Of a stretch of 64,000 nt of DNA, positions 15,778 to 62,462 are shown piece by piece. The stretch is taken from NCBI GenBank assembly GCA_008632985.1, contig QPGO01000008.1, positions 414,979 through 478,978 on the forward strand, in the 5' to 3' direction. The stretch's first letter is position 1, and every line of letters starts with the position of its first letter. Made by a program: the position numbers and the translations under genes. Below the pieces are notes generated by a model. That model made no database searches and had not been told where the DNA came from. It saw nothing but the letters and a program-made list of their open reading frames with translations. This DNA comes from Psammoneis japonica (lineage: Eukaryota).

Positions 15778-16566
15778 ATGGCTAGTAGATTCGCCTTCAT
15801 CAAAAGTCTAATTGTTTTGTTTGAAATATTTTCAGTCGGGCATGCTGGGGAAGAAGGTATGCGACGAACGCAGAAGGTGTCGCTCCCGAATTTTCGTTCC
15901 GTGATTCTCATTGTGTACTTTGCGAAACGATTGTCAAATACTACTCTGATCGTGCTCTGTCTTGTGTTAATTCTACTATCAACCGGCTATGTTCAATATG
16001 TAGGTGCAAACGATCATCATCTTCGGGGCGCCGACCAGGTGGAGTTATCTTTTCGAATGCTAAGTCCCGAAGACAATGCCGAACTGTGCGCGTTGTGTTT
16101 CAAACACGACTGCGATGAAGAAACAAATGACCCGTTTTGCGGAGCGCATCAAGAAAAATGTGATGCCGTTGATTGCTCGGCGCATGATGCTAAAAATAAG
16201 GAAAAATACTGCAAGAGATGCCACGATCTCAACAGATGCGCCATGAGCTTTTCTCCTCAATGCAGCCGTTGTTCCAAGCTTGATTGCCCAAAGCGCTTAT
16301 CTAGCTGCGACGACTGCCATAATTATCATTGCTTTAACAGCGGGAAAAGAGAAAATTGGTGCATTTTGCATGACTGTGTCGCAGTCTGTCGACAAAGAGA
16401 CCACACCTCCCGTGGTGCTTGCAAGCGCTTTAAAGGCAAAGAACTGAAAGATTGCGAAGCCTGCAAAAAGTGCATGGACAACGGCTGCTTCGAATTGGGG
16501 GGCTCAGCTGCGGGAAGTCAGTGCAAGGAATGCAACAGAGATTGCTCCATTCTTCACTCGGGCTGA
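15778..16566 (+). CDS. secreted Cys-rich repeat protein, join(15778..15856,16004..16566)
   Basis: signal peptide MASRFAFIKSLIVLFEIFSVGHA, HLRG motif, about four CxxC-x4-5-C modules; in-frame GT-AG intron. Confidence 0.65.
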   Translation: MASRFAFIKSLIVLFEIFSVGHAGEEGMRRTQKVSLPNFRSVILIVYFAKRLSNTTLIVLCLVLILLSTGYVQYVGANDHHLRGADQVELSFRMLSPEDNAELCALCFKHDCDEETNDPFCGAHQEKCDAVDCSAHDAKNKEKYCKRCHDLNRCAMSFSPQCSRCSKLDCPKRLSSCDDCHNYHCFNSGKRENWCILHDCVAVCRQRDHTSRGACKRFKGKELKDCEACKKCMDNGCFELGGSAAGSQCKECNRDCSILHSG

Positions 16567-18850: not shown

Positions 18851-18881
<31 letters not shown>

Positions 18882-21800: not shown

Positions 21801-22743
21801 CTGCAGACAATGTTGGATGTCAGGTTGAGAGGTGCACTTCAAAATCTTTTGGCTCTGACCTCAGAGAGCCAAGGAAATCCCAGAAAAATGGCTGTCATCA
21901 GGGGAAAGTTGTTTGAGCAATCCTCTGGTGGTGGCTGTGTGCAGCCCAGCACACAGAGGTGCGTTGGCCTGCTGCCCACATCATTTGCTGTCATTGCTGC
22001 TCCTGCTGCTGTTGCTGCTGTTTTGTTGTTCTGCCTGCCATGATTTGGTGGTGGGAAATGGCAAGCATTGACTCATTTTGCACAGTGGCTGCTGTGCTTC
22101 CTGGAGTGTGTTTTGCAGCATTGTCACATGTTGGTGGTTCAGCAATTTGGTGGTTGGCTGGTGACAACTGTCTCCAGTGCATGTGGTGCACAGAGATGGA
22201 AGGAAGGGCAGCTGCTCAAACTGCTGAGCATGGGTCAGGGGTGAGCTTGACAAGAACCTGATCACAGATCCAGTCATGAGGAGAGGTTTGGAGCTCCTGT
22301 CCATTGTGCTGTTGAGCTCCCACAGCATCCCATGACAAAGCATGCCACTCACACTGCATCACACTGTGAAGCTGCAGTGGTGCCATGGGGTGCAAGAGAA
22401 CCAGGTGCTGTGATTGTGACAACTGTTGCTTTGTTGCAAATGCCAAAAAGCAAATGACAAGAAGAGATGAGAGCATTGAAGAACCAAGCACAACAGCCAG
22501 CCAGCCCCCTCCATGCAAAGTGCACTCCATGTGGACATGACCACCAAGGCATGAGAGTGGGTGAGGCAGAAGCACCTGCGGCTTCTGTTTTGGGCACTGG
22601 TTGACTTCAAAGCCAGGACTCAACTGCCTCTTGCGCACCCACTTTGTCAGTGATGACATGAGGCCAAGACCCAGTTCAGCAAAGTGCTCAACAACTGTCA
22701 AAGTGTCACTTGAAAAGCAACAATGAGGAAACAATGAACAAGA

Positions 22744-25700
22744 GTGCCACACACAGAAATCTTGTGCAAGCTGCTGGGAGTGCTTGACAAGCAAGCCAGA
22801 TTTGAGGTCAGTTGCGAGGAGGTGCAAAAGGAGGCATTGCTTGTGTGCTCATGTTGGCTCAAAGGGAAGCCCATGTCTGAGGGACAAAGCTTTTTTCAGA
22901 TGTCAAAGAGCATGGTGCAGCAGTTGAGACTCTGGATGATTGTGTGGCTGTGGCCAAGGAGAAAATGGCTGTTGAGGATGAGCGAGCCAGAGAAATTGGC
23001 GATGCAATGGTCTGGACATGATGTCAAAAATCTTGCACTCTGTGACACCAAAGGGTCAGAAAAAGAATGTTCTGCTGACAAGCTGACTTTTTTGTGCCTT
23101 TGTGTGGACAAGATTAAGAACTCTGACACTGATCTGACATTTTGCAGTTTTGAAAAACAGCTCTGTTGGCTGAGCAAGCTGGCGCATGGAGGGTGCCACC
23201 CCGTGCACACTCGCAAGTCCTCAAACTCATTGTGCAGCACTTTTGCTTTGTGCACCCAGCAGCAAACAGCATGGTGATTCAGCAGCTGCTTCTTCAGTTG
23301 CTTTGGGCTGCAGCAAAAAGAGCTCAGTTGCATCCATGGGCCAAACCAGCAGTTGGAACGGAAGAAAAAAAGCGGACATGAAAAGCTCCTGGGGTCTGAG
23401 ACAAGAGCAGGGTTGCCAGAGGAGTTGTTGGCTGTCAAAGATGCAAATGATGAAAAAAAATGGCAGCAGTGTCATCAAGCTGGCCATGCAAGGAATCAAA
23501 GATGTCCTTTTCAACCAAGGTGGCACACACAATGCACAGTGGGGGCACTTGGCATTTTCTGAGGACGGCCTGCTGCTCAACAGTCAAATGAGGCCAGCAG
23601 CTGCTCAGCAATGGGTGGCAACACTTCCATGCACTGGGCAGAGAGACAAAGAAGAGTCTTCATGATTTCTTCAAAATGCCCAGCAAACAAGGCACCCAGT
23701 CCACTGAGGATTAGAGTGCAGTGTGGGTGCAGCCATGGCTGGTGGATCTGACATCACAGAAAAGTGCCTTGGAAGAGGGAGCCATGCAGCAAGCACTTTG
23801 AACCAAATGAGATGTGCACCATTGCTCACAGCACACATCCACAACATCTGAAAGAGTTCAAAAGACAAAAGAAAGAAACAGAAGGTGTGAGCCAGCTGTG
23901 GTGCACGGTGCAAGGGCTCAACAAAAGAGGCCATCTCATCTGCAGAGAGACTCACCATCACCTTGCAGAAAATCTCAGACTTTTTGCATTCTGACAAGGT
24001 TTTGCACCAAGAGAAAACACAAACAAATGCAAGCACTTTGTGCCTGCAGGAGTTGCACACATGAAGGGCAACAGGAGATGTGTGACCTCCACAAGGCATG
24101 ACACTTGCCACAGTGTCTGTGATGAAGAAATGTTTGGTTTGTGGAGCTGACTCTGAAAAGCCAAACAAGCCACATTCAATGCAGGAGGAGGTTCTCCAAG
24201 AGTGCACAAAGTTGCCAAGGAGACAAGACAGCATCAAGGGCAGCTTGAAGCTTCTCAACAAATGTGCGCATGCCCATCATGGCGATTGCAGCAAGTGGGC
24301 ACACAGGCCCATTTTTGTTCTTGCCAAAATGTCCGCCACTTGCCAAGTTGCTGCAATTGTGCAACAAAGCCAGAAGAGAGTGGCCTCAACAAGCCATTGA
24401 AAAAACACATGAGACAGAAGACTTTTTGGGGGGTGGGTGGCTGCAAATGCAACATCAGTGCCAGACTTCTCCTGCTGTCATCACTTTGATCAGCATGGAA
24501 AGTTTTCCACCTCCAAACTTGTGTGGCTGTCTGGAGAAGCTTTTGTGCAAGTGGGGGACAATGCCAGAATTGCCGCTGCCCAACATTGACAAGAGCAGGA
24601 GAGCTGAGAGTGCAAGAAAGATGAGAGTGGCACCTCAGCCCATGAATGAGACAGGGAAGGGAATGGGTCATTTGCTGTTCAAGACAAAAATGAGCCCTTC
24701 TACTTCCAGGAGGCTTGTTGCAGGGACAGTTGCACACACTGTTTGTTCCTGAGGGCAAGTGCAGAGAACCCAACAAGTGAAGCAAAAAGAGACCGCAAAG
24801 GGAAGAGTGTGTGTGCAAATGGGACAAAAAGTTTGCTGATTGCCTGCTGCATGTTGCCTGAAATGGACCCAGTGACTGGCAAAAGAAGGGGCCACAAAAT
24901 GTGTGCTTGTTCTCTCTGACAAAATGATGGACCACAACTTTGTTCACAAAAAATGTGCCAAGGTGGCCCACCCTTCAAGCAAAGATGGGTGCAAGCAACT
25001 GAGTCTGATGGCACCACCTGTGGTGACAATGGAGTTGCAGCCCAGGAAGAGTTTCTCACTTGGTTGTGAGGATGTGAAAGAGTTCATGTCTTGCCTCCTG
25101 AAGGATGCATTTGAGGAGCACACAGCACACAACACACTGTGCTGGAAAGCAAGGCATGATTGGGGCTCAAAGTTGAACAAGATCTGGCGCTCCGTTTGCT
25201 TTGTTGAGTGCAAAAGCATGACAAAAGAAATGCTTGCACCCAGAGGCTCACAATTGCAGCATCACTCACTTGGCCCACAGAGTGCTTCTTTCTTGAAATG
25301 GCCAAAGCAACCCCTGACGTGCATGTGCAAAGAATGTCACATTTTTTGAACACAGCAAAGAATCTGGAAGCACAGCTTGCAATCACACAATGATGGCTGG
25401 TGCTGTCTCTGCCCCAAAGATGGGGAAAGTGAGCAACAGCCATGGGGCAGAGGCATTCCTCAATGAAAAGCAACTGCCTGGAGGAGTCAAAAGTGACTCT
25501 CCAATCATTTTTTGCTGGAGAGGGGCCCGGGTTGGCAAATTGGAGCAAGTCCACCAGAGCCGCTGTTTCCAACAATGTGTGAGTCACATTTGTGTCGTCA
25601 ATGGGGTGGCGCTGCAAAGGACAGCATCAAGGAATGAAAGCTTTTTTTAGCTGGCAAATGCTCCAAACAAAGAACGTGTGGAAGCCAAAGACATGCTCAG

Positions 25701-27430
25701 CCTGGTCCATCATGGCCACATGGACAGCTGATGGTTTGGCACGTGGCCAGAATTTCAGCACGCACACATGTGTCAGAGGTTGACAACTGAGGACCTGGAG
25801 CTCAAGCCATGATCAAACACTTGGCAGCCAAGTGCCTCTCCCAAAGGCCAAAAGAAAGACTGGGCATTCTGAAAAAGTCCAACAACCAGAGGACAGATGA
25901 TGAGAGCTCTTCAATGTGAGACATTTGCAGCTGACATGTGTGCTCATCTGTGCTGCCCTCCTCTTGACCCATTTGACCACCAAGTTGTCAACACAGAGAA
26001 AGGCTGCAAAGCACCTGGCTTGGACTGCTGTTTTCATGTGTCCTTGGCAAAAGAGTCATGCCCTGCTTGATCAAATTTGATGTGACAAAGGGGCATCTCT
26101 GCACATGTGCACCTTGCCTCTCAAAAGTCAGCGCAAAAAGAATTGTGGCTGACACCATGCTTCACAGGAAGCTTCTGGAAAACCTGTCTGGGCTGAGCCA
26201 GCCAAGCCATCCAGTGTGTCAGAAAATTGAGGTGAGCACACCTTGGAAGAGCCACGCAGAGAAATCCAAACAAGAGGAGGTGCTGCAATTGTGAGAATCC
26301 ACCCAACAACAGAGAAAACCATGCACCCCAACAGCAGTCATTTTGTGACATGTGACATGATGGTTGCTTGAAAAGCCTTGGAAGTTGATGGCATGTGGAG
26401 TGCATGGGGCCAATTGATTTGATGCTGGGTGGTTTGCAGCCCATGTTTGATGGCTTCAATGTGAAGAAACAAAAAGGAATGAAGGCCAATGGTGCATTGC
26501 TGGCACAGAGCAAATGCTGCAGTGCAGCGGTGCTTTTGTTTGCAGAACAAACCAAACAAGGTTTGATCTTGTGTGCAGCAAAGCCAAAATGATGTGCAAG
26601 CTCACGGAAGTGCAAGCAACAAAAAGCAGCAATGCAGTCAGCTTGAATTGCACACTCTTGCAGAGGGAAATCAAGTGGGAAAATTTTGAGCAAAAAAGTG
26701 ACCATGAGAAAACAGTCATTTCAAAAGGGGCGACACTGTGCTGAGTGTCTTGTGTGAGCATGATCTTCATTCAGTCATTGAGAAACATTTTAAATGTGGA
26801 ATGTTGTTGACCACATTGGCGACCACAAGAAAAGAGCCATTTCAAAATGGGGGGTTTCAATGTTCCAAGTGCCTGAGGTGAGCCCAAGATCCAAGCTTTG
26901 GCTGAAGTTGCCAGGACATCCAAGATCTCAATTTGCCAAAATCAGGTGATTTTGCCACACCTGACCAGCCAACTGCCCAATGCATGTGATGGTCATTGCA
27001 CCAAGCAGGTGCAATTGAGGGCTGCCTTCATTTTCTGTGTGTCACAGTGTTCTTGTTTTCATTGTGCAATGACATCCTGCATCAGACCTCAGTGCCAAAA
27101 ACAAGCAAAGCTGCTGTGTGCAAAGAGATTGAAGAATTGCTGTTGGCAGTTTGGGTGGTTGACAAGTGTGGTTGTTCACACATGCCAAACAACAAAGTTG
27201 GCAAACACACATTTTTTGCTGCCACACTTGTGTTCTCTTCATGCAAGCAAATGGACACAGAGGTTGTTTTCCTCAGGCAACTGCAGCAGGGCTGCATGGG
27301 CACTGGTGTGCCATGATGGTGATCTCCTCTTGGCAGAGGAGATGCACAAAGTGCCAGATGAGGGAAAATCCTGCAAAAGACTGCCCCAGCCCCAGCTGCA
27401 AAGGTGAGCAGCTGAGATGCTCTGCCATGT
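22744..27430 (+). mobile_element. decayed LINE-like non-LTR retrotransposon: APE-like? - RT - RNase H-like? - C5 DNA methyltransferase-like
   Basis: collinear RT motif remnants across frameshifts: GDCSKWAHRPI (~24281), QKTF.GVGGC..NI (~24415), VWL..EK/AF..V (~24521), GLLQG...TLF (~24712), FAD (~24832), HKKC (~24945); weaker LALCDTK/GD (APE) and SDS...ADGLARG (RNase H). Confidence 0.6.
26172..27010 (+). pseudogene. degenerate DNMT3-like cytosine-5 methyltransferase domain inside the LINE-like element
   Basis: ordered remnants LLENLSGL (motif I?), NH.P...FCDM*, GPIDLMLGG..PC (motif IV), N...QKG, FAE (VI), NA...QR...WENF (VIII), AECL, LTTLATT, LW/AEVAR (IX), QL.NA..VI (X), with DNMT3-like spacing. 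Confidence 0.55.
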
Positions 27431-29831
27431 GATCTGAGAATTCACAGTTGTTCCAGCTGACCAAGAACTCTCATGTTGCGCAGCGCATTTTGATGCTCAC
27501 AATCTCCAAGCATGCAGGTGCCAGTGCTTGCAAAAACAAAATGTCTCCACTAAATGCTGCTTCCCTTCAATGTGAGCAAGCACACTGCTCCACCCATGCA
27601 CAGTTGGAGCTGTCATAAAATTTGGTGCTGAGGTCTTGGTGTGCTGCGTGCTTGCCCCTCCATGGCTCGGCTGTGGGGATGACTTGTTTTTTCTTCAAAT
27701 GGTCTGAGATGTTGCCTGACTCTTGTTTTGTGTTTGCAAATCTCTTCCCCTTTTGATTTGTGCTGTGCTGTTGTCAAGCACTTTGGCAGCAACAGCACAC
27801 AGGCTGCTGCGTGATCTCTCACACCTGTTTGCATCACCACATGGTTGCTGTTGTGGTGTCTGGTGACATTCTTTGTCATTTTGGCATTGTGCATGTTTTG
27901 CTCTTTGTTCTTTCTTTTCTCTTTCATTGTTGCAGTGTTGGTCATTTTCTGCTTCTTGCATGCTTTGACTGTTCTTCAGTTGGCAGCATGTGTGGTGCGG
28001 AGTGTCACATCTCTGAGCATGCAAACTCTGGGGGGCTTGAGCAAGACATGTGCATCTTTGTTGCATGTGGGCTGCTTTGCTTGGTCAAATGTTGTGAACA
28101 AGCAGAGCATCTCTCTTTGGAGCTGGAGTCATTTCCAAGCTCAGCAGTGCAAAGCTCTTGTCATGCTGCAGGTTTGCTGCTTGGTTTGCTTGCTCTTTCA
28201 TTTTTCAGCAAAGTTGCAGCCACTGCTGCCATTGCTTTTTGTGGGTCATTGTTGTCACTGTCTCAAAAGAAGCTCTCTCTCTCTCTCTCTCTCTCTCTTT
28301 TCTCCACACAGCAGCAAGTCATTTTTTTGTTGTGTTGCTGTTGTTGCTGCAAGAGGGGGGGAGTGCAGGCTGTCATTGTCAAAGCTTGCTGAGGAGGCTG
28401 CAAAACATGGTGAGAACAATTTGCTTGGCTGAGCGATGCTGTTGTCACACGCTGGCATGTCTTTGCAGAGCTGGTTTGTTTCTCTTTTTTCCATGTGCCA
28501 GGTGGGCTCTCTTTTTCCATCTTTTGTCATTGGGGCCTGCTGAGAAGAATGCAGAAATTTCTGCGGCCCTTGTTGTTGTTCTTTGTCCTTTCTCCTCTCT
28601 AAACCAGACTTTGGCTTTGAGGCAACAGCAGAACAAAGGGGCAAAAGCAACATGATTGGATTTTTTAGGATTTTCCACTGCACAAGAAAAGCACAGTGTG
28701 CTGCATGCCTCATTGCCAAGAGGTGGTGACGTGAATGTGGCGTGTGTTGTTGTGACGTTTGTGCCATGTCAGCAGTGTGCCCCAGAGTCTTTTGTCCTTG
28801 CAGACACTCAGTTTGTCAAGTTTGTGAATTCACTCAGTCATGTGAAAGAAGTCCCCACGAGCAACCTTTGTTTGACAGCAAAAGGTCATGCCAACACAAG
28901 GCTCTGTTTTTTGCCCCGTCGTTTGATGCACTCCATTGTTGAGCAATTGAGAGGAGTTCATCCGGGGGAATTTCTTCACACACATTCATGTTCACAACAG
29001 CACAGTCAACTGATGTGTCAAGCACCAACTGCAAAGTCATCCTCTGGCTTCATCTAAAAAGTGCCGTTGTCATCATTCCTGTCGAGCGACAATTTGCCAT
29101 GCAAACCGCAGTCAGCTGCGTGTCCTGCATCGTCGGCCCAATGTTGCACTGCTGTGCTCAATGACTTTTGTGCACACCCTGAGAGCTGCTTCACACCCAG
29201 ACTGCAAGCATTAAGTCAAACCACACATTTTGCTCCTGCTGTCAACGGATGTGCCAAGAGCAAGAGGTGTGAGGACAATCTGCACTGCCTGACTCGTTCG
29301 ATTGTTCAAAGCTCCCAATCTGGATCTCATCCATCCACGCGCGCAAGATGCGTCATGGCTTCAACTCGGAAGGGTGAAGTTCCGCTTCATTCAAAAGCAG
29401 TTCGCGTTCTGGCAGTGAAATGTACCCTACGAGTCTTAAGAATCACATACATAGCCTCTAAATAAAACTCCGGGAATGGCATGAGAAGAAGTGTGACTCG
29501 TATGCAAAAGTAACTCGATACACGCAGTCGTCATTAAAAATCTGGCGAGCTTCACTTATGATGATGACGTGTCTTCATCTGTCGATGAGCCATTCGTGTC
29601 ATCATTACTTATGGGACAGCGGTTTGCAAGATCGGCTTCTCGTCGTTTTCTGACGACTGCGGCGGCATGTTGACAAGCGATCTTCTTCGTTTTTTCACTT
29701 GGCACATCCCGCCCATCATCTCGCTACTTCGTTTTGCAATCCCATCAAAGCTGTTGATTGCATCACGTGACAACAGTGTCACAGTCACGCAACACAGCTC
29801 TCACACTGAGTACTGATTCAACAACAGCATC

Positions 29832-31261: not shown

Positions 31262-31460
31262 NNNNNNNNNNNNNNNNNNNNNNNNNNNNNNNNNNNNNNN
31301 NNNNNNNNNNNNNNNNNNNNNNNNNNNNNNNNNNNNNNNNNNNNNNNNNNNNNNNNNNNNNNNNNNNNNNNNNNNNNNNNNNNNNNNNNNNNNNNNNNNN
31401 NNNNNNNNNNNNNNNNNNNNNNNNNNNNNNNNNNNNNNNNNNNNNNNNNNNNNNNNNNNN
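31262..31460. other. assembly gap (Ns)
   Basis: run of N. Confidence 1.
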
Positions 31461-38555: not shown

Positions 38556-39449
38556 TTAATACCCATCAAGAGGATCGAGAACAATTCCGGCAACTACCGC
38601 GGCAAGTCCAACAGCAGCAATTCCGACGGCAGCAATCACCGCTGCCCTTTGTTCGTCTGCGGTTTGGACATCAACAAGACTTTGGCACAAGTCACTCTCC
38701 TTTCCGTCTTTGTCACATTCAGAGATACGGTAGACATAGCCACCGGGAGAAACAGTGTCATCCAAGTAGCGGTACACTCCACCCTCGGGTCCCTGCGACG
38801 CCAAAGGACCAAAGTTCTCGTACGATGCAATCACAGAAAAATCTTCCGTTTTGGCTGCACGGCGCTTCACAACAAACCCTTTCGTATTGGTTTCAGATTT
38901 CGTGGCCCACTCAAGTTCCACTTCACCATCGATGACTTTGCAAGTAAGACCGGTACCACTGAGTTCCTGCGCCTGCGAGTCAAAGTAAAGATTGCCGGAT
39001 ACACTCTTTTCTTGAAGCTGTCGCTTACGACGTGCCTCGGCGCGTTCCTGCATGACTTGTCGGATCTTCTCCTCGTCTTCTTCCGAAATATTCATCCAAG
39101 GGGCATAGTCCACACCATTAGCATTTCGAAGATTCGATACCTTCTTTTTCTTGGCAACCTCTTCTTTCACCAGGGCGTCCACCTCTTCCTCGAGCGTCAT
39201 TTCTTCCTCCTGTTGATCACTGTCGGCGAAGAAAGGCACATTATCTTGTGCCATGAACCGTGCCACTGTTTCAACGAACAGCATTGAAAAAAGTTAAAAA
39301 CGACAACGAGAAAACGAGACACAAGCAACAATCAGTTTCTTACCTTTTCCTTCGGTCGACACGACAAACGCACGGGGCGTGGACACGGGGGCAAAAGCCG
39401 AAACAGAACCTGCCGCTCCGAGGAGAATAAATGCAGAACAGAGCTTCAT
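38556..39449 (-). CDS. plastid-targeted protein with FN3-like beta domain and C-terminal TM helix, complement(join(38556..39265,39344..39449))
   Basis: MKLCSAFILLGAAGSVSA-FAP (ASAFAP motif); VELEWATKSETNTKGFVVKR...YRYLD...YVYRI; GT-AG intron restores frame. Confidence 0.8.
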
Positions 39450-40249
39450 GGTGTCGAGTATCTTCCTTGTGAACAGCAAATGAGATGCACAACGATTGCA
39501 GCGATTGACTTGTTGTGATGCGAGTGCGTCCACTGACGACACCGCGTTGCACGTCAGCGAACGTCTTGGCGGCAAGTTTTGGAGCATCATTATCGCGCGC
39601 GAACAATCGACCGTACCGGTACGAGGACAGACAACCGTGAGACAAGAAGAACAATGGAGTGCAAAATGCTTTGGCAGGCGAGTACAATCAGCTGCACGAA
39701 AACATTCGGAGCGCTCCGCTGTGCTCTCTGCATGAGAGAAAGGAAAGAAACAATTCGTGCAATCGATCAATGTGCAGTGAACAGTGAAACCTCTCCAGTG
39801 ATCAACACTGACAAGAACAAAAATTCTTTGGTGCCTGCAGGCACAAAACCAAGTTTCACAGGTTCCCAAAAAGAGATGTCTCCACATGAACACACTTGAG
39901 CTGATGAGGGTGGACAGCATGCCTCCTGAAAGAAGTTGCAGTGGTGGCATCACACACATGCATGGAATCACCCCACCTTCAGGTGACCCAAATGAGCGCA
40001 TCTGTGTGCACGTGCCAAGAGCCACTGTCAGCGGTCAGCGCATGACTTCAGATTCAGCAAGCTGGCTGTTTGGTTCTTGCTGACAACTGGGTCTCACTTC
40101 TGTTTGGTCTCTGTGATGTTTGTGCTGTGTCATGTGTGTGTCTTGCTCCATCTGTCCACATCAGGTCCGTTCTTTTAAACTTCAAATTTCAAACAGAGTG
40201 TGCCAACCTGAGGCAACAGACAAGATGTTTGGCATGGGATGATGTGAGG

Positions 40250-41974
40250 TGACGTCAGTCAACGAACCCCCCATTGAACCAACCAACCTTGATGGAGGAC
40301 CCAAAAAAGGTTCACCACAGTGGCTTGAAGCTGTCTCTGCAGAAGCCTCACATGAAGAAACAAAAAGTGGAGAGTTGAAATCTTGCCCTGCTTGCCAAGA
40401 AAGAGAAACAGCCAAAGAAACAGAGCAAGAAGGAGACATGCTGCAATTGCATGTTCATGTCCACCTGCCAAACTTGTGCTTGCTCAGCATGTTGCAAACA
40501 TGGTCAACCATGCAACTCTTGCACTTGCTTTGCCAAATGCAAAAACAAAGCTGGGCTCCCTGTTGCATCTTCAGCAACAGGAGCTCATGTGTGAGAGGCC
40601 ATGGAAACTTCCAACCTCTGCCCAGAAACTGGTCCACTTCAGCCAAAAATTTGTCAACTCATCTCTGACACCCCTGGTGATGCCGGCAAAAGAGAAAAAA
40701 ATGGCCAGCCCCAAAGCTGACAAGGAGAGCACCACACCCAGCAGTGATCAAGATGCAGATGCTGACGAGGGCAGAACTGGTGAGGTCAACACTGTCTCAA
40801 GGGAAAGAACATGCAATCTCAACAATGTCGCTCATCTGAATGGTGGAACATTTTGTGACCAAGCTCAGCAAGAGCATTGGCACCTGCTGGCATGCTGCCC
40901 AACACACAATGGTGTGATGCCCCAAACACCTCCACAGGGAAACAGTTCATTGCAATGTCAGCAAAGTTGCTTCACATGGTCATGACGTGCAGAAATGGAG
41001 CTCAGACAGGTCTGTGGTGTTTCAGATTGTCACTCTGCAGCAGGATTGCAGCACCAAAGGAGCAAAGGATGTTAGAGCCATGTTTGCCAGGTGCAAGAAC
41101 AAACACAAAATGCTGGTCAAATCCACCGAGAGTGGCTGCTTGCAAGCAACCTCAAGTCCACTCAGAAGGACAAAATGCCCAAGCAGCATGCCAAGACATT
41201 CAATGGAATGGTGCCATGAGGAAACCCAAGAGGTGCAGTCAGGTGCATTGCTGAATGGGAAAAAGGTGGAAGGCTGTCACACTGGATGATGTCAATGAGA
41301 AGAAAAAGGGCACACTTCTGGAGGTCTCACAAGCAAAACATCCAGAGTCTTTTTGTTGAAGAAGCCCAATTTCCCAAATGTGGCACCTGAGCTCCAAGAT
41401 GTTGCCATCACTGGCAGTGTTGTCAGTGCTGCAGTGCAGACATTGTTGGGGAGCATGTGGCAGGACTTGACAGATCTGATGCCAGCACAGCATCACAATG
41501 GCTTCTCCATTGTCACATGGCAAAGCCAGCAGATTACTTTGAGAAGCATTGTGGTGTGCATGTTCAGAAGCTGGACAGCAAATGAATGAGTTGCCCCCTT
41601 GGGTGGCCTGCCAGGCTCTCATGATGAAAAGACTCATTGTGCAAAACAAAAATCTGGGCATCCATCTGGTCGGTGGGTGTGGAGGAGGCTTGGCAATGAG
41701 CCACAGCCAAAGCCGTTCTCCCAGTTTCTGCAGCTGAAGCCAAAAAAGGTTTGTGGTTTGTGTCACAGACCAAGCACGGGCCAGATTGGAAGCAGGCAAT
41801 GAAGGTGGCATTCACACTGTGAACCTGGGAACAACACAAATTTGAGGATGACTGTGGAGGGCTCTTTTCAGTCAGCAGTGCCTCCAACAGCTTCAACAAC
41901 AAGAACAAGATGCCAGCACTCCTGTTCACAGTCAGGCACAAATGACCTTCTGGCACTCAGTTTGCCTTTAACTG
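40250..41974 (+). mobile_element. 5' part of decayed CRE-like (RLE-type) non-LTR retrotransposon RT ORF
   Basis: LLEVSQAKHPE, NELPPWVACQALM.KRLIV.NKNLGIHLVG, LEAGNEGGIH, NSFN...LFTVRHK*PSGTQFAFNC match the family pattern PPWAAYRALM..RLIALDK.PGIRPVG / EAG.EG.IH / NAFN...VRH.WPSGARFAFNCY. Confidence 0.8.
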
Positions 41975-44900
41975 CATCTGGAAAATGTCGTTGCTCTTGT
42001 TCAGAGCTCACATTCTCTTGTTCAAAATCCTGTGCTCTTGTCAAGTCCTTGACAATCATCAATGAAGGGAACTCAACAATTGTTTCAACCTTCCAAGTGG
42101 GGTTTAACAGTCAACACAAATCAGTCTCATCATGCACACATTCTTGGCAATTTTTCATGTCTGCTTGTTTTGACATTGTTTTTGATTCTGTCCATGCTCA
42201 AAGTGACCTTGTAAGTGGGAAATGGCAGTCATCAATGAAGCTTGTCACTTGCATTTGTTTCTGTCTTAACAACCATGTGTTGGCAACAACTTTCTGACAT
42301 TGTTCATTTCTGACAACAATGGTGTTCAATTGTCTTGTCAACCTGATTGTGCGTTGGCTGTGTGCTGCTTGTCATCTGATTTGCAAATGTTCTGTTTTGT
42401 CATTTCTGTGATGGATGCTAAAAAATGCTCCCCCTTTGTCCTGCCCTTGTTTTTCTCCTGCACTGCACCAGTTCCTGTCATCTTTTGCAGTCCCCACATG
42501 ATGGGTGTCCTGTTTTGGTCCTTGTGTCCTCCCTTGTGGCCACTCTTGCTCTCTCCATGACTCCACTCTTGCTCTCTCCATGATCGTCTGCACCAGGTGA
42601 CAATGCCATCCCACGATGATCTGTCTTGCATTCCTTCTGTTTGGCAGGCACCAAAGTGTTGTCTGTAACAAGAGAAAACTTTGTGCAAATGATCAGGTTT
42701 GTGCATGTCTTGTGTCTCTCATGATCTCATCTCATGCACTGCTGCTGCTGTTGCTCACCTTTGTGCCCTCCCCACTGCCTGTCTCCCATTTTAGCTCAGG
42801 TCGCATGTTCAGATGTCTGTGTGCAAAGATTTGTGCAAGTGTCAGTCGTTTGCATTGTTTGTCCGATCTCCATGCACCCACCACTTGTTTCCTCTTTCTC
42901 ACCTTATGTCCCATGTTTTGCTCCATCCCATCCACAACACTGTTGCCTGTCTCCACTGCTCTCATTGTTGGACATTGGATGAAACTTGAGTTTGCATTTT
43001 TGTGTCTTGCGAGGCGGCAACAATTCATGTTTTTGGCAAAAAGACAAGCCTGTCTGTCAGTTGATTCCCATTGGCATCTCTTTTTCAGCAACAACTTTGT
43101 TTTAGAAATCAATGTCAACATTGTGTTGTGAAGGTTTGAATGATTTGAAACAACTTCAATGAACCATCCAGCCATCAATGTCATGCACGCATTCAACAAG
43201 TTTAATTTTGTCACATTGGTGTGTTCTTGTTGAGATTGAGGTGCACATTCTTCCTGGCTCTGGGACTTCAGTCAACACGTTTTTGCCATTTGGTGTGTTC
43301 GTTGACCATGCTGCCAAGAAAAAAGAAGAAGCAGATCCCACAAGGTGCTGGCCACAACAACGCCAGTCATGCCAGTGCCGCCTGTTTCCATGGTGGCTGG
43401 AGGTGGTGCTCATGGTGCTCAAGCACAAAGTTGAGGTCCACCCAGGCAGCCCAGGCAAGGCTCCAGGACAAGCCCTTGGCAAATCCAATGCCTTTGACAA
43501 TGCACCTGACAAATGTTCCCCTGCAGCTCAACAAGAAGATCTTGACTTTCTCAAGGAGTGTGATGGAGTCCCTTCCTGCAAGCTGCAAGACTCCCTTGCT
43601 CTTTGGAGCCTCTGAGCACCATGCCACCCACAGCATCAGCCCAAAAGAAATGTCTGGTGATGAACGCAGAATGTGGCTGTTGTTTTGCTGGTGCAGACAT
43701 GTGGCCTTTGCAAAAACCAAAACAAAAAAGATGTGCAAGCAGCTGCAGCAAAAACACAAAGTCAGTGGTGCAAAAATTGCCACACTGCCAACAAGATGAC
43801 AGCCTCCCTCCAGAAAGCTCAGAAACACACCCTTCATGCCAGCCAAATGATGACTTTGGAGACCAACCTTGTGAAGAAAGTGGGCAACTTGAAGGTGGGT
43901 TGTGCTCTTCTGTTCTCTCTTGGTTTTCCATCCAGACAAGAGATGCAGGGAACACCATGAGTTTCCACTCAGTGATTCCCTGCCCTGGTTGTTGTTGGCT
44001 CCCCTGGGGCACAATGGAGGCACCCAAGGCCATCCAAAGACAACTGGCGCTGACTGGGCCAAAGAAAGCCAATCACATCAGAAAAAAAGGGGCTGCATTG
44101 GTCCAAGACAAGGCTTTTCCTTCCCAGCCATTGTTGTTCTTGCCTCCTCAAGGACCCAATGGAGCCTCTTGTGCCCATCTCAAGACAAACGGGGGCTTGC
44201 ATTGTCACACAGATGGCTCCTTTGTCTTTCTTGCAAATTGATTCTTGGCTGGACCAAACCCAGTCATGTCAGAGAGACAAGGTGCTGCATTCACACAAGA
44301 CAAGGCCTTTGCTTCCCAGCCATTGTTGTTGTTGTGTCCTGCCTCTGGGATCCAATGGAGTCACCAAAAGCTGTCCCGAGATGACTGAGCACTTGCACTG
44401 TTGCACAGATGGTTTTCTTGTCTCTGCGGGTGGGGTGGCCATGCCAAACCCAATCATGTCAGAGAGACAGGGTGCTGTGTGGACACAAGACAGGGCCTTT
44501 GCTTCCCAACCATCATTGCCATTGCATTTTCTGGGATCCAATGGATTCATCCAAGGCCATCCCAAGCCAAGACAATGGAGCACTTAAGCTGTTGCACAGA
44601 TGTTTCCCTCCTTGTCTCTGCAGGTTGGCTGGCTGGGCCAGCAAAAGCCAGTCATGTCAGAAAGACAAGAAGATGCTGCATTGACACAAGACAAGGCCTT
44701 TGCTCCCCAACTGTGGTTGTTGGCATGTTCCTGGCAACCCACTGGAGTCCTCCAATGCCATCCCAAGACAACTGCACACCTCCTTTGCCACACCTGTGGG
44801 TCTGATGCTTTCACACCTCCTTGTGCAGCTGGGCATCCTCTTGTTTGTGGAGGAATCACACAAGGGGCTGCTGCTTCCCAAGACAAGGCTTGCAGCATGG

Positions 44901-47900
44901 GTGCACCACCACATTCTCCATTTTAGTTTCTCAAGTGGCACTGGCATGTGCATCATGCACCATCCACCCCACAAGCATGTTGCTCCAATCAGAGATGCCA
45001 AGACACATGTCATCAAACTCAACACCAGAATGAACCCCTTGGAGCTGAGGATGTGTGGCTGATGAACTCTGGCCATTGTCTTCATTTGCAACAATGGTGA
45101 CAGGGAAGAAGATGAGACAATCTTCCCAGTCTCTGTCATCTGGCAATGGCTTTCCAAGCAGTGGTGCCATTGCTTGCTTCATTGGATGCAAAGACCATGC
45201 CTTGGCAAGTTTAAATCTAGGCTGCTCTTCCTGCTGTTGTTCCCAGTGCTTCTCTTCCTGCAGCACTGGGGGTGTGCTTGCCAAAGTCATCATCAGGGTT
45301 CAGGCCAATGTGGAGAAAGAACACTGGAGATGCCTTGGAAAATGTCTTTGGAGAGCATGCTTGTTGTTGTTGCATTGTCACACATCCAACCAGCACAACA
45401 AAGTGGATTGTGACAGGGGTGCCTGCACCATTGTTGTTGGCATGGATGTCAGATTGGAGGATGAGTTGTGCGGTGTCTAGCAGGAAAAAATGACAGGTGC
45501 AACAGAGACAGAGCAAGCCAAAGCAAAGGCAGAGAGCTGACAAATGGAAGGAAAAGGAAACATCAATGGGGGGGAAGGGAACAAATGAAGCTGTTCTTAG
45601 CAAGAGTTCAAAATGAGGACAAAATGAGCCACACAGGTGACTCAACATGATGCTTTTGGGCCACGTCCGCATGGCCATTGTTGTGATTTTTGACAAAATG
45701 CCCATCACTCATGAAATCAATTCTTTTTCTTTCCCAAAATGCAGACATGCAATGCAACTCAAGTTGACCATGGGATCAGTTGTGGTGGCAGCAACATTTG
45801 GCACCAAGTGCAAGAAACACCTGGAGAGCATGTTAAAACATCATTGTGATCATGAGGTGTGTGTCCCAGCAAAGAAAGACATCTTTGCTCAATGTTTTCA
45901 ACCAGCATCTGAACTTTTCACCTGATTTCTTTGTTTCTTCTGCATCTGACACTGCAGCAGCAAATGTTTTGAAGGTCTAAAGTGGAGTGCATTCTGCAGA
46001 TGCCTGTGACTTGGACAGCACATTCAACAAAGATGACAGAGAAAGGCACGTGCTCTTTCTTTGGCTTTGTTTTCCATGTCAAAAACAAAAGCAAGCATGG
46101 CAATCCTTGCTTGTCACGATCATCTGCAACAATCAATGTGACTCAATGTCTGCATCAATCTGTCCAAAATTTTCAATCAATGGCTCAGACACCACACCCT
46201 CTGTGACTCAGGGAAACCATCCTGGGCAGTTGTCAGGTGTCAAAAATTCGTGCAAGCTCCTGAGGAGCTTCAAGCAGTTGGACACAGGACCCTGTGAAGA
46301 TGCCAGCTCCAACCAAATTGATTCAAAGCATGGCTTGAATTGTTCACATTGTCTTCAAAGAGGCATTTTCAAGTGGCCAATGCTTCTGAGATTGGGGTCA
46401 AACTGCAGAAAATGCTGCCAGCAACAATCAAATGACAACAGCCAGCCAGAAACCTTCTGTCGGACACCCATTTTCATCCTTTTGCATGCACAGAACAATG
46501 TGTGGCTTGTCAGCAATGCAGATTGAACATTGTGCAATGGTCCAAGAAGCGTCTGCTGCACAGAAGGACGTTGAATGTGAGCAATGGTGAGAATTGACAA
46601 GCACTGTTGGTGTCATTAACTCAAGAAAGGTGGGTTTGATCCAGGATTTGGTGAGTGCTCAAGCAGCTCTCTCTGCTGGGCTCCAAGCACCAGAAGTCAT
46701 TGCTGCAATGATGAGAATGGCTTTGCCAAAGAGCAACATCACAAAGTGGCATGGGCTGGTGTGCTTTTAATGGCCAGTTGCAACCAGAAGTCATCTCCTG
46801 TTTTGCAAAATGTCTGCTGTGACCAAGAGAATTTGCAGTGCAGTTGCTGGACCCCCTTCCACTGCAGTCTCCAAAAAGTGTGTGCATTGAAGGTCCAAGC
46901 ACTGTGGGCATTGTCTGCACAGTGGAGAAGTCAAAGAAGCCAATGAGAGTGCACAAACAAACTGACCTGCATCGCATCACTTCTCACCGACATTTGCCTT
47001 GACTGCTGCTGCCCATAAAATCCAGCATCCAGAGACCAGTCTTCTGGCATTGAAGTGGTGGCCTTGTTTTTGATTGCACTGCAAAGGCCTGTGATGATCG
47101 TTCATGTCATGTGTGAGGCAAGTGAGCCACCCAAAAGAGTTCACATTACATCCGAGAAATTCTCACAAGCTTGCAAGTGAGGATCTCATGCTCAAAAGTG
47201 CAAGAAAGTGATCAATGTTCCTTCTGTCAAGCTAAAATGACACTGTGCCTGTGCCAAATGAAACAAGCAATGCCTGCAAGCATGCACTGCATTGTGAAAA
47301 ATTCCACAATGACAAGCAACCTTTTCACACTTGCCTTGGTCATTTCACACATCACCATCACTGCAGCTCTCCTGGCAGACCTGGAAAAGAGGACATGACA
47401 TGTTGGCACTTCAACCATGATCTCCTGGCTGATTGTTGCAATGACTCTGCATGCAAAGCTTTTTTGCCCAACAACCAGAGCAAAAACGCTGTGTCTCAAG
47501 AGTCCTGTCAACTTGCACATCACGCAAAGCTCACTCGAGTGCCTTTCAGAAAAGTGTCACCAAGCTCACTTCCCTTCACCACAACAAATTGAACCAGCAA
47601 ACTGCAGCACATGGAGAAAACACTCATGTGAGCCACACAGGCAACTTGAACAAAGGCAGAGATCTGACAAATGGAAGGAAAAAAACAACAAAAGCTCTTG
47701 ACAAGCGTTTGAAATGTGAACAGAATGAGCCACACAGGTGGCTTAAAATGAGCAAAAATGATTCAATTGCTTGTGACTTGACATGTGCCAAGAAAAAAAT
47801 TGACAACTGTGTGTGTTGAAGATCTGTGGATGCAATCAGCGTGCATGTGAAAATTTCAGTCATTGACAAGTTGCGCTCTTGTTGAGCATGGAAACATGTT

Positions 47901-47907
47901 GCAGACG
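41975..47907. mobile_element. ~5.9 kb nested insertion with short degenerate terminal inverted repeats, class unresolved
   Basis: interrupts RT at FNC|CK-HW; left end catctggaaaatgt vs reverse complement of right end cgtctgcaacatgt (11/14); TG on both flanks. Confidence 0.5.
43950..44800. repeat. degenerate tandem repeat, unit ~190-200 bp, at least 4 copies
   Basis: caagacaRggcYtttScttcccaRc recurs at ~44104, 44296, 44486, 44686. Confidence 0.8.
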
Positions 47908-49250
47908 TGCTGCAAGCGCACTGGAGCACCTTGATTGTCTGTGGGAACCTTGGGCTGTTCATCCTCCTTCTCAGCAAGGAAGGCTTCTCAAGCAGAGTGA
48001 TCTGCTGGGTGTGGCAGTGTGCGGGCAAGGCCTTCTGCTCCCACCAAACTGTGAGATGACCAAGCATTTTCCAGATGCACTTGCTCCTTCTTGGCGTGCC
48101 AATGTCTCTGCTGCAGCAGGTGAATTTCACATTTTGCAAAACTTCTTCCTGGCCCAATTCTGTGAGCCAAAAGACCTGAGCCCAGCTGCTGTCCCACCAA
48201 CAACTCCAAGAACATTCCAGCGGTCCCAGAGTGCAGTGTGCTGGAGAATGCCAAGAAAGGCTTTCTTGGAGAACTTGACTGGCAGCCAGCCACTGCCCAG
48301 GAAGTTTCAAAGGAGAGCACAAATCCTTTCATGAGTGGGCAGCAAAGAAGACTGAAAAGTGGGCCTCAGTCTCATCCAGCAGGAACTCACCAAGACATCT
48401 GCTCATGGCCCACAGACAGCCTGTGCCAGTCTGCAGAAGTCTTTGCAGCATGAGGATGTCCAACACACACAGCAAAGGACTGCGGTGACTGTTTTGCCAA
48501 TGTGGAAAATGGGATTAAGTGTCAATTCCTGCCAACACTTTTGGGAGAAACCCTGGTGGATGATGACCTGAGACTGGCCCTTGCCACCCCACCAATCAAA
48601 TTTGAAGGACTGTCTGTCCAATGTCTCCAGCTGAGTGTTTGCAAAGCAGAGCTTTGAAGCAAGCACTCTCACATGTTTGCACATGATTTGCTCACTTCAT
48701 GACCACTCACAATTCACCACAGCTGTCCACAAGGACATGATGCATGAGGTGAGGACAGCAGCAGCTGAAAGGAGCCAAAAAGCATGAGGACGCACTCAAA
48801 TCTGTCCTCTGCACTCTGCCTGAAGTTGACGCTTGCGCAGCACCAAAACTGGTGCTTGGTCTGGAGATGGTGATCATGGAGATCTTTTAGCCAAAGACTT
48901 GTGGGAATGGAGCACAGACACAATCATGGATGTTGGAGCAGCTGATGCTGATGTGCCATCCCATGTGTCCAAGACAGCCAAACAAGTCCTGCTGGATCAT
49001 GAAAAGGAGAAGAAGCACAAGTGTCTCAAGCCATGCCTGCTTGAGCAACACCATCATTTTTTGCCTGTTGTGGTTTCATACGATGGTCTGATTGGCAAGG
49101 AGGCTCAAGCCATCCTGCATCAGACAGCCAGAAAGATTTCGAACAAGTGGCAGAAGCCCTGTTCTGAAGTGTGTGGCTTTGTCAATTCAAGATGATTCAG
49201 CATTGCAATGGAAATTCGCGCGCGAAACTCAGTGCCGTGGTCGCACATGT
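47908..49250 (+). mobile_element. 3' part of the same CRE-like element (RT core, CCHC region, restriction-like endonuclease)
   Basis: HWSTLIVCG..LLSKEG, QSDLLGVAVCG (QGDPLG..YG), WRANVSAAAG (WYADDSAAAG), GDLLAKDLW...IMDV...HEKEKKHKCL..C....HFLPVVVSYDGLIGKEA...KWQKPCSEVCG. Confidence 0.85.
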
Positions 49251-49309
49251 CCCTTACTACATAAATAAATCAAATCCTCCTTTTCTCTATCTGCAGCAGG
49301 GCCCCACTT

Positions 49310-49440
49310 CTATCCTCTACTCTCTCTCTCTCTACTAGCTGCTCTCTCTCTAGAGAGAGAGAGAGAGAGTAGAGAGAGGGCCTGCGAATAGCTAGAGTAG
49401 ACCTACCATACCCTGGTACAGAGCCCTAGCTAGCTAGAAT
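49310..49440. repeat. TAG/CTA and (CT)n/(AG)n palindromic tract at right border of block 2
   Basis: ctactctctctctctctactagctgctctctctctagagagagagagagagagtagagagag. Confidence 0.8.
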
Positions 49441-59119: not shown

Positions 59120-60530
59120 CTCCAAGTTGACTGAGTTGCTGTTGTCAGTCATCAGACGTTAGAGCGGAGGTCGTTGCCTGCTCTTGCTGTTGCTTGCGGT
59201 TGTTGGTGCTGTTTCTGGCTAGAGATGTGGTGCTCTACACTGACTGTAAACTGTGAGTTGAAAGGAGTGCATCAGACTGGTGTGTTTTGTTCAAAGCCTC
59301 AGGGTGGGTTGTCGCTCAAAATCAAATGGCCAAGGTCAGCCACGACAGTTGGCAAGCAGGCATTTTCCAACTTCCAACATTATTGAATGTGCTTCATCAG
59401 AAGGAATGTCAAAGCTCTGCACACATTACCTCACTTCCTCTCATGTCCTTGATGTCTCCGTTGCTTCTTCCAATCTGCGCACCCGGAGAAAAAAAGAGAC
59501 AAGCCTGCGCCAAGCAGAGCAGCCATCCCTTCTCCTGGGAGCCAAGTCAGTTCTCTTGATTGCAGGTGACTGGGTCCAGCTTGGCAGACATGTCCGTGGT
59601 GACAGGTTTGATGAGCTTGTTGGCCAAGAAGTTTTTTGTCGCCATCCAACGGAAGTCTTCTTGCTCTTTGGCCAGCAAGACGTGCAATTTCAGTGGCTTC
59701 TTGTTGGCTCAAATGGGTGTGGCATGGGCTCTGGTGACACTTTCAGTGCTGGTGAAAAAACTGATCATGGTTGCAGTTTTGATTTTCAATTTTGGTCCAA
59801 GGCACAGCTTGGTCTGTTCTCAGACAAAATTTCCATGAAGTGATGCAGGCCTGGCGCCTGCATGATGTGCCTCAGCATCAACCTGCAATCTTTGTGCTGC
59901 ACTCATGCTGAATTTGGGAATTGACCAGCTGTGTGCAATGCATCTCAGCAGACGTGCGAGTGTGGTGCTGGTGCCACACTCAAAGCACAATGCACAAAGA
60001 GGAAAGGGGTGGCCTGCCTGCTGTCTGAACAGTCAGATCCACTGCAGCAAAGTGGATTGAGAATCTCAGTGATTCCGCCTCCAGCTTTTCCAAAGCCATG
60101 GGCAAGAAGGAAGCAAGTAACTGTGCCATTGAACTGGTGAAGAGCTTTGTTGGTGCACACGAGAACAAGTTGTTCACACAGACAAAGCCTTCCTGGAAAG
60201 TTTAGTCAAACCAAAACTCACAGCAGCCAAGGCAAGGAGAGCTTCCAAAAAGTAGAAGGAAAGTGTCATCAAGATTAGCAACACCATGTGGAGAATTATG
60301 AAGGAGTTGGACGAAGGGTCAATCCCACATTGTGATGCATGGGGTTGAATTGTTGAGACCAACAAGTCAATTACGTGAAGAGAGGATCATTGTCAGGGCA
60401 CTGCGGTCTATGATGTTTCGAACATGCTTGTCATTTCAGCCTTGTTGTTGAAATCGGTTTGGTGAGGGCGTTGCGGCTCCCAGAGTCCCCATCCACGATT
60501 ACCTGACTGTCCTTGAAATCTGGATGACAC
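59120..60530. mobile_element. hypermutated block 3 (less complete TA/CG loss), origin unidentified
   Basis: TG/CA-rich with few TA and CG, between CLP1 promoter and IMP4 3' end. Confidence 0.6.
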
Positions 60531-61719: not shown

Positions 61720-61840
61720 TCCTCTCTACTAGCCTTAGCAGAAGTAAGTGCTCTCTACTCTAGCTAGAGAGTAGAGTAGCTAGCTAGCTAGCTAGCTAGC
61801 TAGTGGCAGCTACTCCAGCTAGAGAGTAGCTAGAGTAGAA
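61720..61840. repeat. TAG/CTA tract including (GCTA)n at left border of block 4
   Basis: tagctagagagtagagtagctagctagctagctagctagctagtggcagctactccagctagagagtagctagagtag. Confidence 0.85.
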
Positions 61841-62421
61841 CGCGTGGGCTCTCCGTGGGGCGTGATTGTGAGCATTGGTTTTTGAGAAGGCTCAAACAGA
61901 AGCCGACAACTCGTTTTTGTGTTCCAGTCAATGGCAACAGAGGCTGAACAGGGAAGCAAGTCATGATCCAGCAAAATGACAGACCAGCGGTGTGCAGCTG
62001 TGGCTGGTGAGAAAACAAAAGCTCTCAGCTTTCTGGACAACGCTGTGTGCAGCAACAGCCGTTTGGTCAAATTCGTGTGACGAAAAGCACAGCAAACAAA
62101 ATTGGCCACTTTTTTTTTGTTGCACATTCAAAGTCTTTTCTGGCTTTTTTGACAACTTTCACAGCACATGATGCAGAATGAGCAGCTGGCCACCAATGGC
62201 TTCTCTCTCTCTCTCTCTCTCTCTCTCTCCAGAACGAGCAAACGATCAAAATTGTTGAAGCCAATTTTCCATCAAATGTGACAAACAGACAGTGCCAGCA
62301 GCCAAGGTGGAGCTGCTCAGTTGGACATTTGTCCAACCATTTCAATGAACAGCAGAAACAACAATGTCAGCCAAAGTCAGGAGAATGAGACTTTTGCAGT
62401 GGCTTCATCAGTGGCTGGTCA

Positions 62422-62462
<41 letters not shown>

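Follow-up and report, generated by a model that had tools for sequence, protein, structure and literature searches.

Transposon hypermutation as currently known acts on cytosine, through repeat-induced point mutation (RIP), the decay of methylated CpG, or APOBEC enzymes. Fungal RIP requires the sexual cycle and a RID-type methyltransferase. Its sole change is C to T, mostly at CpA, by which TpA arises and the DNA becomes AT-rich with a high TpA/ApT index. ADAR (A to G) and APOBEC (G to A) act on RNA or single-stranded cDNA, strand-asymmetrically and with a one-sided neighbour preference. A TCG-type, RIP-like decay of transposons is described for basidiomycetes (PMC3318451). A second source documents CpG methylation of diatom transposons and reports that many diatoms have DNMT4, which groups with fungal RID and whose function is not known (PMC9998398). 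Here we analyse 64,000 nucleotides of nuclear DNA from the diatom Psammoneis japonica (the window, to which all positions refer). The window contains two dead retroelement copies, one of a non-long-terminal-repeat (non-LTR) retrotransposon at 40818–49252 and one of a Penelope-like reverse transcriptase (RT) at 62507–64000. Both lie in blocks that are nearly devoid of TA and poor in CG, and their conserved tyrosines read predominantly cysteine or histidine.

The depletion is confined to four blocks, as determined from observed/expected dinucleotide ratios calculated per block and for the rest of the window. Block 1 (16811–29422, 12612 bp) contains 18 TA (0.022 of expectation) and 117 CG (0.156). 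Block 2 (39684–49254, 9571 bp), comprising the non-LTR copy and an insert nested in it, contains 30 TA (0.046) and 76 CG (0.139), with TG at 1.90, CA at 1.74, and a G+C content of 0.478. Block 3 (59428–60117, 690 bp) has no TA and 12 CG (0.273), and block 4 (61837–64000, 2164 bp), which holds the Penelope-like copy, has 8 TA (0.058) and 30 CG (0.236). Pooled, the blocks retain 0.03 of the expected TA and 0.13 of the expected CG, while TG and CA rise to 1.4–2.1 of expectation; outside them, TA stands at 0.628 and CG at 0.952 (0.96 in the pooled comparison). The block contents hold 53 TA against 1180 AT (ratio 0.045). The G+C content is alike inside (0.484) and outside (0.473) the blocks.

The depletion is symmetric between the strands and ends sharply. 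The blocks contain 2690 TG and 2558 CA, and a runs test on successive TG/CA sites (z from −1.5 to +0.9) reveals no strand patches, as in ordinary DNA. This balance, the lack of runs, and the occurrence of both Tyr-to-Cys and Tyr-to-His changes within one element suggest that double-stranded DNA was hit site by site, on one strand or the other independently. At the 3' border of the non-LTR copy, the last aligned position is 49252 and TA reappears from 49255. At block 4, TA is frequent as far as 61836, after which 856 bp pass without one (until 62692).

Conserved residues and the direction of change

Since the copies are frameshifted, their DNA was aligned to position-specific family profiles with a frameshift-aware dynamic program. 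For the non-LTR family, a phmmer search of the full library with the read-through translation of 47696–49192 returned 861 relatives at E ≤ 0.001, including 176 at E ≤ 1e-10. The profile was built from 132 of the best 150 of these 861; the other 18, with less than 1% Tyr, were set aside because the signal must not be built into the profile. The Penelope-like search returned 302 relatives (best E 1.4e-57), of which the best 120 were all used. A column was regarded as conserved when Tyr was its commonest residue, at a frequency of at least 50% among at least six sequences. The non-LTR family has 21 such columns, 14 of them aligned to a window codon, and the Penelope-like family has 22, with 16 in the aligned span and 13 aligned.

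The 14 columns of the non-LTR copy read Cys six times, His twice, Phe twice, and Leu, Arg, Gly, and Asp once each, with no Tyr retained. The 13 columns of the Penelope-like copy read Cys seven times, His four times, and Gln and Tyr once each. In the homologues, the same columns are occupied chiefly by Tyr: 447 of 625 cells in the non-LTR family (57 Phe, 26 His, 21 Asn, 14 Cys) and 1305 of 1517 in the Penelope-like family (146 Phe, 21 His, 7 Cys). The same program was applied as a control to eight of 44 metagenomic loci encoding intact relatives, the longer ones being picked. These loci show 0–1 frame changes and no stops, and their 109 columns contain 79 Tyr, 18 Phe, 4 Asn, 4 Gln, one each of Ala, Ile, Arg, and Trp, and neither Cys nor His (Fisher p = 2.9e-9). 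Because Cys and His are common in TA-free DNA, their background was measured at mismatched columns, leaving aside those with a Tyr, Cys, or His consensus; it amounts to 10.0% for the non-LTR copy (n = 412) and 11.7% for the Penelope-like copy (n = 223). The Tyr columns exceed this background in both copies: Cys or His is read at 8 of 14 in the non-LTR copy (binomial p = 1.7e-5) and at 11 of 13 in the Penelope-like copy (p = 3.4e-9). An earlier note on this DNA had proposed such an alignment of Tyr codons; the possibility that Cys or His is the usual residue there in intact homologues too is refuted by the corresponding counts of 40 of 625 and 28 of 1517 cells and 0 of 109 control columns.

The codons identify the type of change. 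Every Cys is encoded by TGY and every His by CAY, so that over both copies TAY to TGY occurs 13 times and TAY to CAY six times; the note's statement that both occur holds. The CpG-type changes that it reported alongside are likewise present. The non-LTR copy keeps 11 of 29 conserved Arg, the rest reading His (5), Gln (3), Cys (2), stop (2), Trp (1), Lys (2), Met, Leu, and Gly. The Penelope-like copy keeps 2 of 9, the rest reading stop (3), Cys (2), Gln (1), and His (1). The outcomes expected from CpG (His, Gln, Cys, Trp, or stop) account for 13 of 18 Arg changes in the former and 7 of 7 in the latter, and the controls keep 185 of 193 Arg. Conserved Pro has become Leu at 5 of 21 columns of the Penelope-like copy.

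The peptides quoted in the note are all found in the window at the places given, and the family consensus, derived from homologues, bears out most of the comparisons. The stretch 41582–41680 reads NELPPWVACQALMMKRLIVQNKNLGIHLVGG in one forward frame. It includes PPWVACQAL (41594–41620, + strand), with gcc tgc cag at 41606–41614, where the non-LTR consensus reads NElPPWAAYRAL. Column 358 has changed from Ala to Val (GTG), column 360 from Tyr to Cys (TGC), and column 361 from Arg to Gln (CAG); the pattern PPWAAYRAL given in the note is present in the consensus, and its Tyr is Tyr in five of the eight covering sequences and Ile in three. In the 3' part of the element, PSHV (48956), KHKCL (49013), and KPCS (49154), spanning 48956–49165 on the + strand, replace pSY, KKrKYL, and rPYS, respectively, as claimed. 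Columns 934 (Tyr to His, CAT), 954, and 999 (both Tyr to Cys, TGT) are Tyr in 73 of 130, 116 of 131, and 99 of 118 homologues. AVCG (48014, + strand), in the same frame as these peptides and WRANV, belongs to this group only in an alignment-dependent manner. WRANV (48092–48106, + strand; tgg cgt gcc aat) replaces the catalytic WYADD; Tyr536 reads Arg (CGT), two transitions away, and Asp538 reads Asn by a G-to-A change after C. This replacement was correctly described; it is part of the non-LTR element and not of the Penelope-like copy, next to whose peptides the note had listed it. In the Penelope-like copy, NLHVHIPP (62896–62919, − strand) stands for NL(H/Y)LYIPP. Its second His (column 470, CAC) does replace a Tyr found in 117 of 120 homologues, but the first, which the note had also counted, is probably native (His 70, Tyr 49, and Asn 1 of 120). 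ECIK (63830–63841, − strand) stands for EYIK as stated, with Cys (TGC) at column 161, where 106 of 108 homologues have Tyr.

The sequence context of the changes was evaluated at conserved columns one unambiguous base change away from the consensus. A change is in the predicted phase if the new base is a G preceded by T, a C followed by A, a T followed by G, or an A preceded by C. The non-LTR copy shows 50 transitions, 34 of them in the predicted phase, and 19 transversions; the Penelope-like copy shows 38 transitions, 27 in phase, and 16 transversions. Pooled, 61 of 88 transitions lie in the TG/CA phase, compared with a block background of 0.43–0.47 (p = 3.5e-6).

The loci of relatives indicate the composition from which the copies departed. 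The 44 loci encoding relatives have TA at 0.34–0.91 and CG at 0.46–1.18 of expectation, against TA of 0.02–0.06 in the blocks, in agreement with the note's view that TA was present ancestrally; the ordinary TA content of the relatives implies that the family is not natively TA-free. Three of these loci (L002, L004, and L016) are full-length, with about 1000 uninterrupted codons on marine metagenome contigs of 3.5–5.2 kb, and are apparently active elements. When 97% of TA and 87% of CG were randomly converted to TG or CA in ordinary window DNA or in the relatives' loci, the resulting profiles approached that of the blocks, with root-mean-square deviations of 0.098 (window DNA) and 0.116 (loci), as against 0.371 and 0.376 without conversion. 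The simulation from window DNA reproduced all 16 dinucleotide ratios (r = 0.977) and left G+C unchanged. Of the residual CG in the blocks, Tyr536 to CGT fits a TA changed on both strands, and most are retained Arg or Ala codons. The direction of change is from TA and CG to TG and CA.

The two copies, their surroundings, and other sources

The 5' part of the non-LTR open reading frame (ORF) lies at 40818–41975 (+ strand) and corresponds to profile columns 98–477, which cover the N-terminal region and the RT fingers, with 10 frame changes. The 3' part lies at 47919–49252 (+ strand) and corresponds to columns 480–1033, covering the RT palm and a C-terminal nuclease-like domain, with nine frame changes. 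The ORF thus has 19 frame changes overall, and columns of about 795–910 are missing. By hmmsearch, the copy is detected as pieces in three frames, of which the C-terminal domain scores 110.6 bits (E 1.5e-35). A Pfam scan of the six-frame read-through of 39501–49200 gave no match; we attribute the silence of Pfam on the blocks to the degree of erosion. A retained CpG cluster (the CGCGCGCG run at 49217–49242) is located at the extreme 3' end of this otherwise eroded ORF.

The family was placed by its full-length members, eight of which (1002–1159 residues) are among the best 150 relatives. A profile of these eight sequences matches the RT of the R2 protein (E 3.5e-13) and LINE-1 ORF2p (E 6e-11), and RVT_1 was detected in one of three family members scanned, at 28.3 bits, just under the cut-off. 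The consensus includes WYADD and, at its C-terminus, a CDGC...H...C knuckle followed by RGD...DV...EKEKK, a D...D...ExK-like domain. We tentatively take the Cys/His knuckle and this domain to be the arrangement of R2/CRE-type elements, which have a restriction-like endonuclease of the PD-(D/E)XK type. No Pfam or PDB match covers the C-terminal domain of the consensus, and single-sequence PDB searches with two members (P0021 and P0157) gave nothing useful. The element at 40818–49252 is accordingly described as a dead, frameshifted copy of a putative R2/CRE-type non-LTR retrotransposon, the clade label resting on motifs rather than a phylogeny. Its closest intact relative shares about 54% of residues.

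The nested insert (41976–47918, about 5.9 kb) splits this ORF and is an equally TA-free, high-copy repeat. In X1, a public DNA run that contains 69% of the sampled words of 39000–48999, its summed depth reaches about 4000. The top depth falls on the tandem array at 44065–44771, whose units recur about every 190 bp and are about 70% identical. A self-BLAST within the window found no second copy of the non-LTR or the Penelope-like element.

The Penelope-like copy (62507–64000, − strand) covers columns 107–615 of a 635-residue profile through 475 aligned codons, has nine frame changes, runs past the window end, and scores 279.8 bits by hmmsearch. The consensus contains EYI, NL(H/Y)LYIPP, DKNLG, an AMG..P segment, RFIDD, and a thumb LYEK..NL.LYIPP..S.HP; we assume that DKNLG, AMG..P, RFIDD, and the thumb are the motifs of Penelope-like elements (PLEs). 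Among named Atlas clusters, those closest to the family consist of DUF8422/HTH_animal/RVT_1 proteins and are most frequent in rotifers. The family has no PDB match (profile A4 included) and no local Pfam match. The GIY-YIG endonuclease of canonical Penelope is absent from the consensus, which ends at 635 residues. If the element is a PLE, a label based on motifs rather than a phylogeny, it would be of the endonuclease-less kind. It lies about 13 kb from the non-LTR copy, and as the two belong to different retroelement classes, they serve as independent witnesses.

No content was recognised in block 1 by a Pfam scan of the six-frame read-through of 16001–29800, and inspection by eye found no recognisable ORF either there or in the nested insert. 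TGA is the near-sole stop codon of the blocks (304 TGA, 9 TAA, and 7 TAG on the + strand of block 1), resulting in long spurious ORFs in all six frames. Near 18850 and near 28270, block 1 carries (GA)n/(CT)n repeats. An Rfam scan of the window detected nothing. Between the blocks lie ordinary, intron-poor eukaryotic genes, encoding a proteasome subunit, a mitochondrial carrier, tryptophanyl-tRNA synthetase, Clp1, and a Brix-domain protein; every named relative of the synthetase is from a diatom, with identity of up to 74%. A run of 199 N at 31262–31460 marks an assembly gap.

Contigs from X1 match the TA-free stretches exactly, with no differences in six listed pieces of 339–1083 bp (e.g. 47845–48927). 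The depth is 32–39 over these pieces and 45–53 in the flanks, where the listed contigs differ from the window at 10 of 1770 and 15 of about 1050 positions. In total, 1047 X1 contigs were aligned to this region, 554 at 90–95% identity, 283 at 95–99%, and 210 at 99% or more. The paralogues among them differ from the window by A to G 23 times, G to A 25, C to T 22, and T to C 25, with each transversion type found 3–8 times, and adjacent TG-to-CA doublets occur at 39920–1 and 43851–2 among the differences listed. Equal counts of the four transitions at about 10% divergence would fit an independent resolution of shared ancestral TA and CG sites. Two other runs (X2 and X3) contain next to no sampled window words, and no RNA run containing them was found.

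Further traces come from other sources. Six of the 18 low-Tyr homologues set aside (P0012, P0037, P0065, P0068, P0112, and P0118) read mostly Cys or His at the Tyr columns. They are homologues of the C-terminal domain with almost no Tyr and with differing combinations of Cys and His, and they originate from JGI, ENA, Logan, and NCBI contigs. In addition, a stretch of about 1 kb beside an intact non-LTR relative (L003:1485–2500), without recognisable coding content, has TA at 0.10–0.16 and TG/CA at 1.6–1.9. It may represent the same erosion in another sample.

Possible origins of the erosion

Considering the composition and the protein-level evidence described above, we regard it as probable that the two unrelated dead retroelements, the nested repeat, and the two further blocks all underwent the same in-place erosion of TpA and CpG, confined to transposons. 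About 97% of TpA and 87% of CpG would have been turned into TpG or CpA by transitions, namely A:T to G:C at TpA and C:G to T:A at CpG. Each self-complementary dinucleotide would be changed independently, with both strands equally likely, in place on double-stranded DNA and within the limits of transposon or silenced chromatin. As TAY is the sole Tyr codon, every Tyr would be lost, to Cys if the coding-strand A changes and to His if the T changes, and CGN Arg codons would become His, Gln, Cys, Trp, or stop. The strand symmetry and the differences between paralogues favour a loss of TA after insertion, as the earlier note had proposed. The CpG half may be ordinary deamination of 5-methylcytosine in methylated transposons. 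The TpA half would require either that adenine or N6-methyladenine is deaminated to hypoxanthine or that thymine is modified in such a way as to pair with G. Since the TpA loss is more complete than the CpG loss, the TpA process would equal or exceed methyl-CpG decay in speed. A more specific proposal, to which we give slightly less than an even chance, is a diatom mutator or modification system directed at transposons, which acts on A:T at TpA and on C at CpG and erases both from silenced elements. The erosion is possibly a dedicated defence, RIP-like and DNMT4-linked perhaps, or possibly a by-product of chromatin marks.

Several points weigh against this account. Twenty-seven of the 88 transitions are off-context, and 35 transversions occur at conserved columns, indicating that ordinary divergence is mixed in; the off-phase changes are ordinary divergence of the copy's progenitor from the family consensus, which serves as a proxy for the ancestor, or later decay. 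Six of the 14 Tyr columns of the non-LTR copy (two Phe, Leu, Arg, Gly, and Asp) show neither Cys nor His. One of them is alignment-dependent: at column 513, within AVCG, the dynamic-programming alignment gives Leu and a near-ungapped reading gives Cys. Just eight sequences cover the non-LTR profile in its N-terminal half. The X1 run is possibly the sample behind the window assembly, which makes its independence unproven, and the differences listed from it are 40 of 134. In the blocks (17001–29000, 40001–49000, and 62001–64000), the dinucleotides GC and AT are at 1.30 and 0.77 of expectation, where the TA/CG-conversion simulation gives 1.03–1.10 and 0.91. Uneroded, TA-rich (CTAG)n/(GA)n/(CT)n tracts at 49255–49440 and 61745–61836 adjoin the 3' borders of both elements; they could represent target sites or microsatellites of more recent origin. 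Finally, we know of no TpA modification or enzyme for it.

The leading alternative, which we consider unlikely, is a homology-triggered, RIP-like burst. Duplicated DNA would have been recognised, perhaps in the sexual cycle, and saturated with mutations in a single round or a few, possibly with the participation of the RID-related DNMT4. The near-saturated TA loss (0.02–0.06 of expectation), the sharp block edges at the element ends, and the high copy number of at least the nested insert are consistent with such a burst. However, the strand-coordinated patches of RIP are absent, and RIP makes TpA and lowers G+C, whereas here TpA is destroyed at unchanged G+C. The 19 and 9 frame changes in the two copies, against 0–1 in the intact controls, suggest age over a single event. 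The adjacent (CTAG)n tracts were spared, implying that repetitiveness by itself is not the trigger. A point in favour of RIP-like machinery is the grouping of diatom DNMT4 with fungal RID, as reported in PMC9998398.

Editing before integration appears quite improbable. An RNA or cDNA intermediate would have been deaminated in an ADAR- or APOBEC-like manner and the copies inserted already mutated, as might be thought from the blocks ending exactly at the element ends and from both identified elements being retrotransposons. The outcome is nevertheless strand-symmetric, with TG about equal to CA and with 13 Tyr-to-Cys and 6 Tyr-to-His changes occurring side by side within single elements, and this symmetry speaks against processive editing of single-stranded RNA or cDNA. 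The targets are two palindromic dinucleotides rather than a one-sided neighbour, and AA is not depleted (1.28). The nested insert and 12.6 kb of DNA without recognised content are equally affected, and paralogues resolve identical sites differently.

A sequencing or assembly artefact, in which modified CpG and TpA bases in silenced transposons were miscalled and the real DNA retains TA and CG, is more improbable still. Symmetric modified sites read from both strands could yield a random TG or CA, and the platform is not on record for either the assembly or X1. Strand-specific miscalls would, however, break contigs that merge both strands, so that the exact matches of the X1 k-mer contigs to TA-free stretches, with no differences over 339–1083 bp, argue against miscalling. 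The Tyr-less Cys/His homologues come from four further sources, where they lie on short contigs, and deletions, transversions, and a nested insertion are present in the copies as well.

A native composition, evolved by transposon families that avoid TA and CG, is almost certainly not the cause, as intact relatives have ordinary TA and CG and keep their Tyr, while the window copies are Tyr-less with many TGA stops and frame changes.

Comparison with known systems

A full-text literature search, which covered papers outside subscription-only access, found no description of TpA erosion in transposons of diatoms or other organisms. A DNA-level, two-strand-symmetric, transposon-only process that removes TpA more fully than CpG is not in the searched literature. 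If real, the in-place erosion of TpA and CpG points to a base modification or deaminase new to science in a major marine algal group; a TpA-specific activity would be implied, either adenine or N6-methyladenine deamination or an oxidation of the thymine methyl group paralleling that of 5-methylcytosine. A mutator system of the kind proposed would represent the first genome-defence-type hypermutation to target adenine or thymine in DNA, and the erosion would provide a testable context for the orphan RID-like DNMT4 of diatoms. The compositional mark (no TA, little CG, doubled TG/CA, no Tyr codons, and TGA-only stops) would locate silenced diatom DNA. For annotation, eroded regions give long spurious ORFs and escape Pfam, and the protein-level Tyr test can polarise mutations without requiring an ancestor.

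Fungal RIP shares with the present blocks the dinucleotide-specific transitions in transposon or repeat DNA, the sharp borders, and copies riddled with missense and nonsense changes. It differs in that here TpA is destroyed (TA/AT 53/1180), A:T pairs mutate as well, G+C stays constant, and strand patches are absent. With TpA destroyed and no AT enrichment, the blocks fall outside RIP as defined by composition. A possible link is the RID-like DNMT4 that diatoms carry, according to PMC9998398.

ADAR and APOBEC likewise inactivate retroelement copies through clusters of transitions, A to G among them; the present changes differ from theirs in affecting two palindromic dinucleotides alike on both strands. 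The decay of methylated CpG in vertebrate and plant transposons corresponds to the CG-to-TG/CA half of the process, being strand-symmetric and confined to transposons, and the strand-symmetric CG-to-TG/CA change expected of silenced repeats is what the blocks display. Such decay leaves TpA alone, in contrast to the blocks described here, in which the loss of TpA (0.03 of expectation remaining) exceeds that of CpG (0.13).

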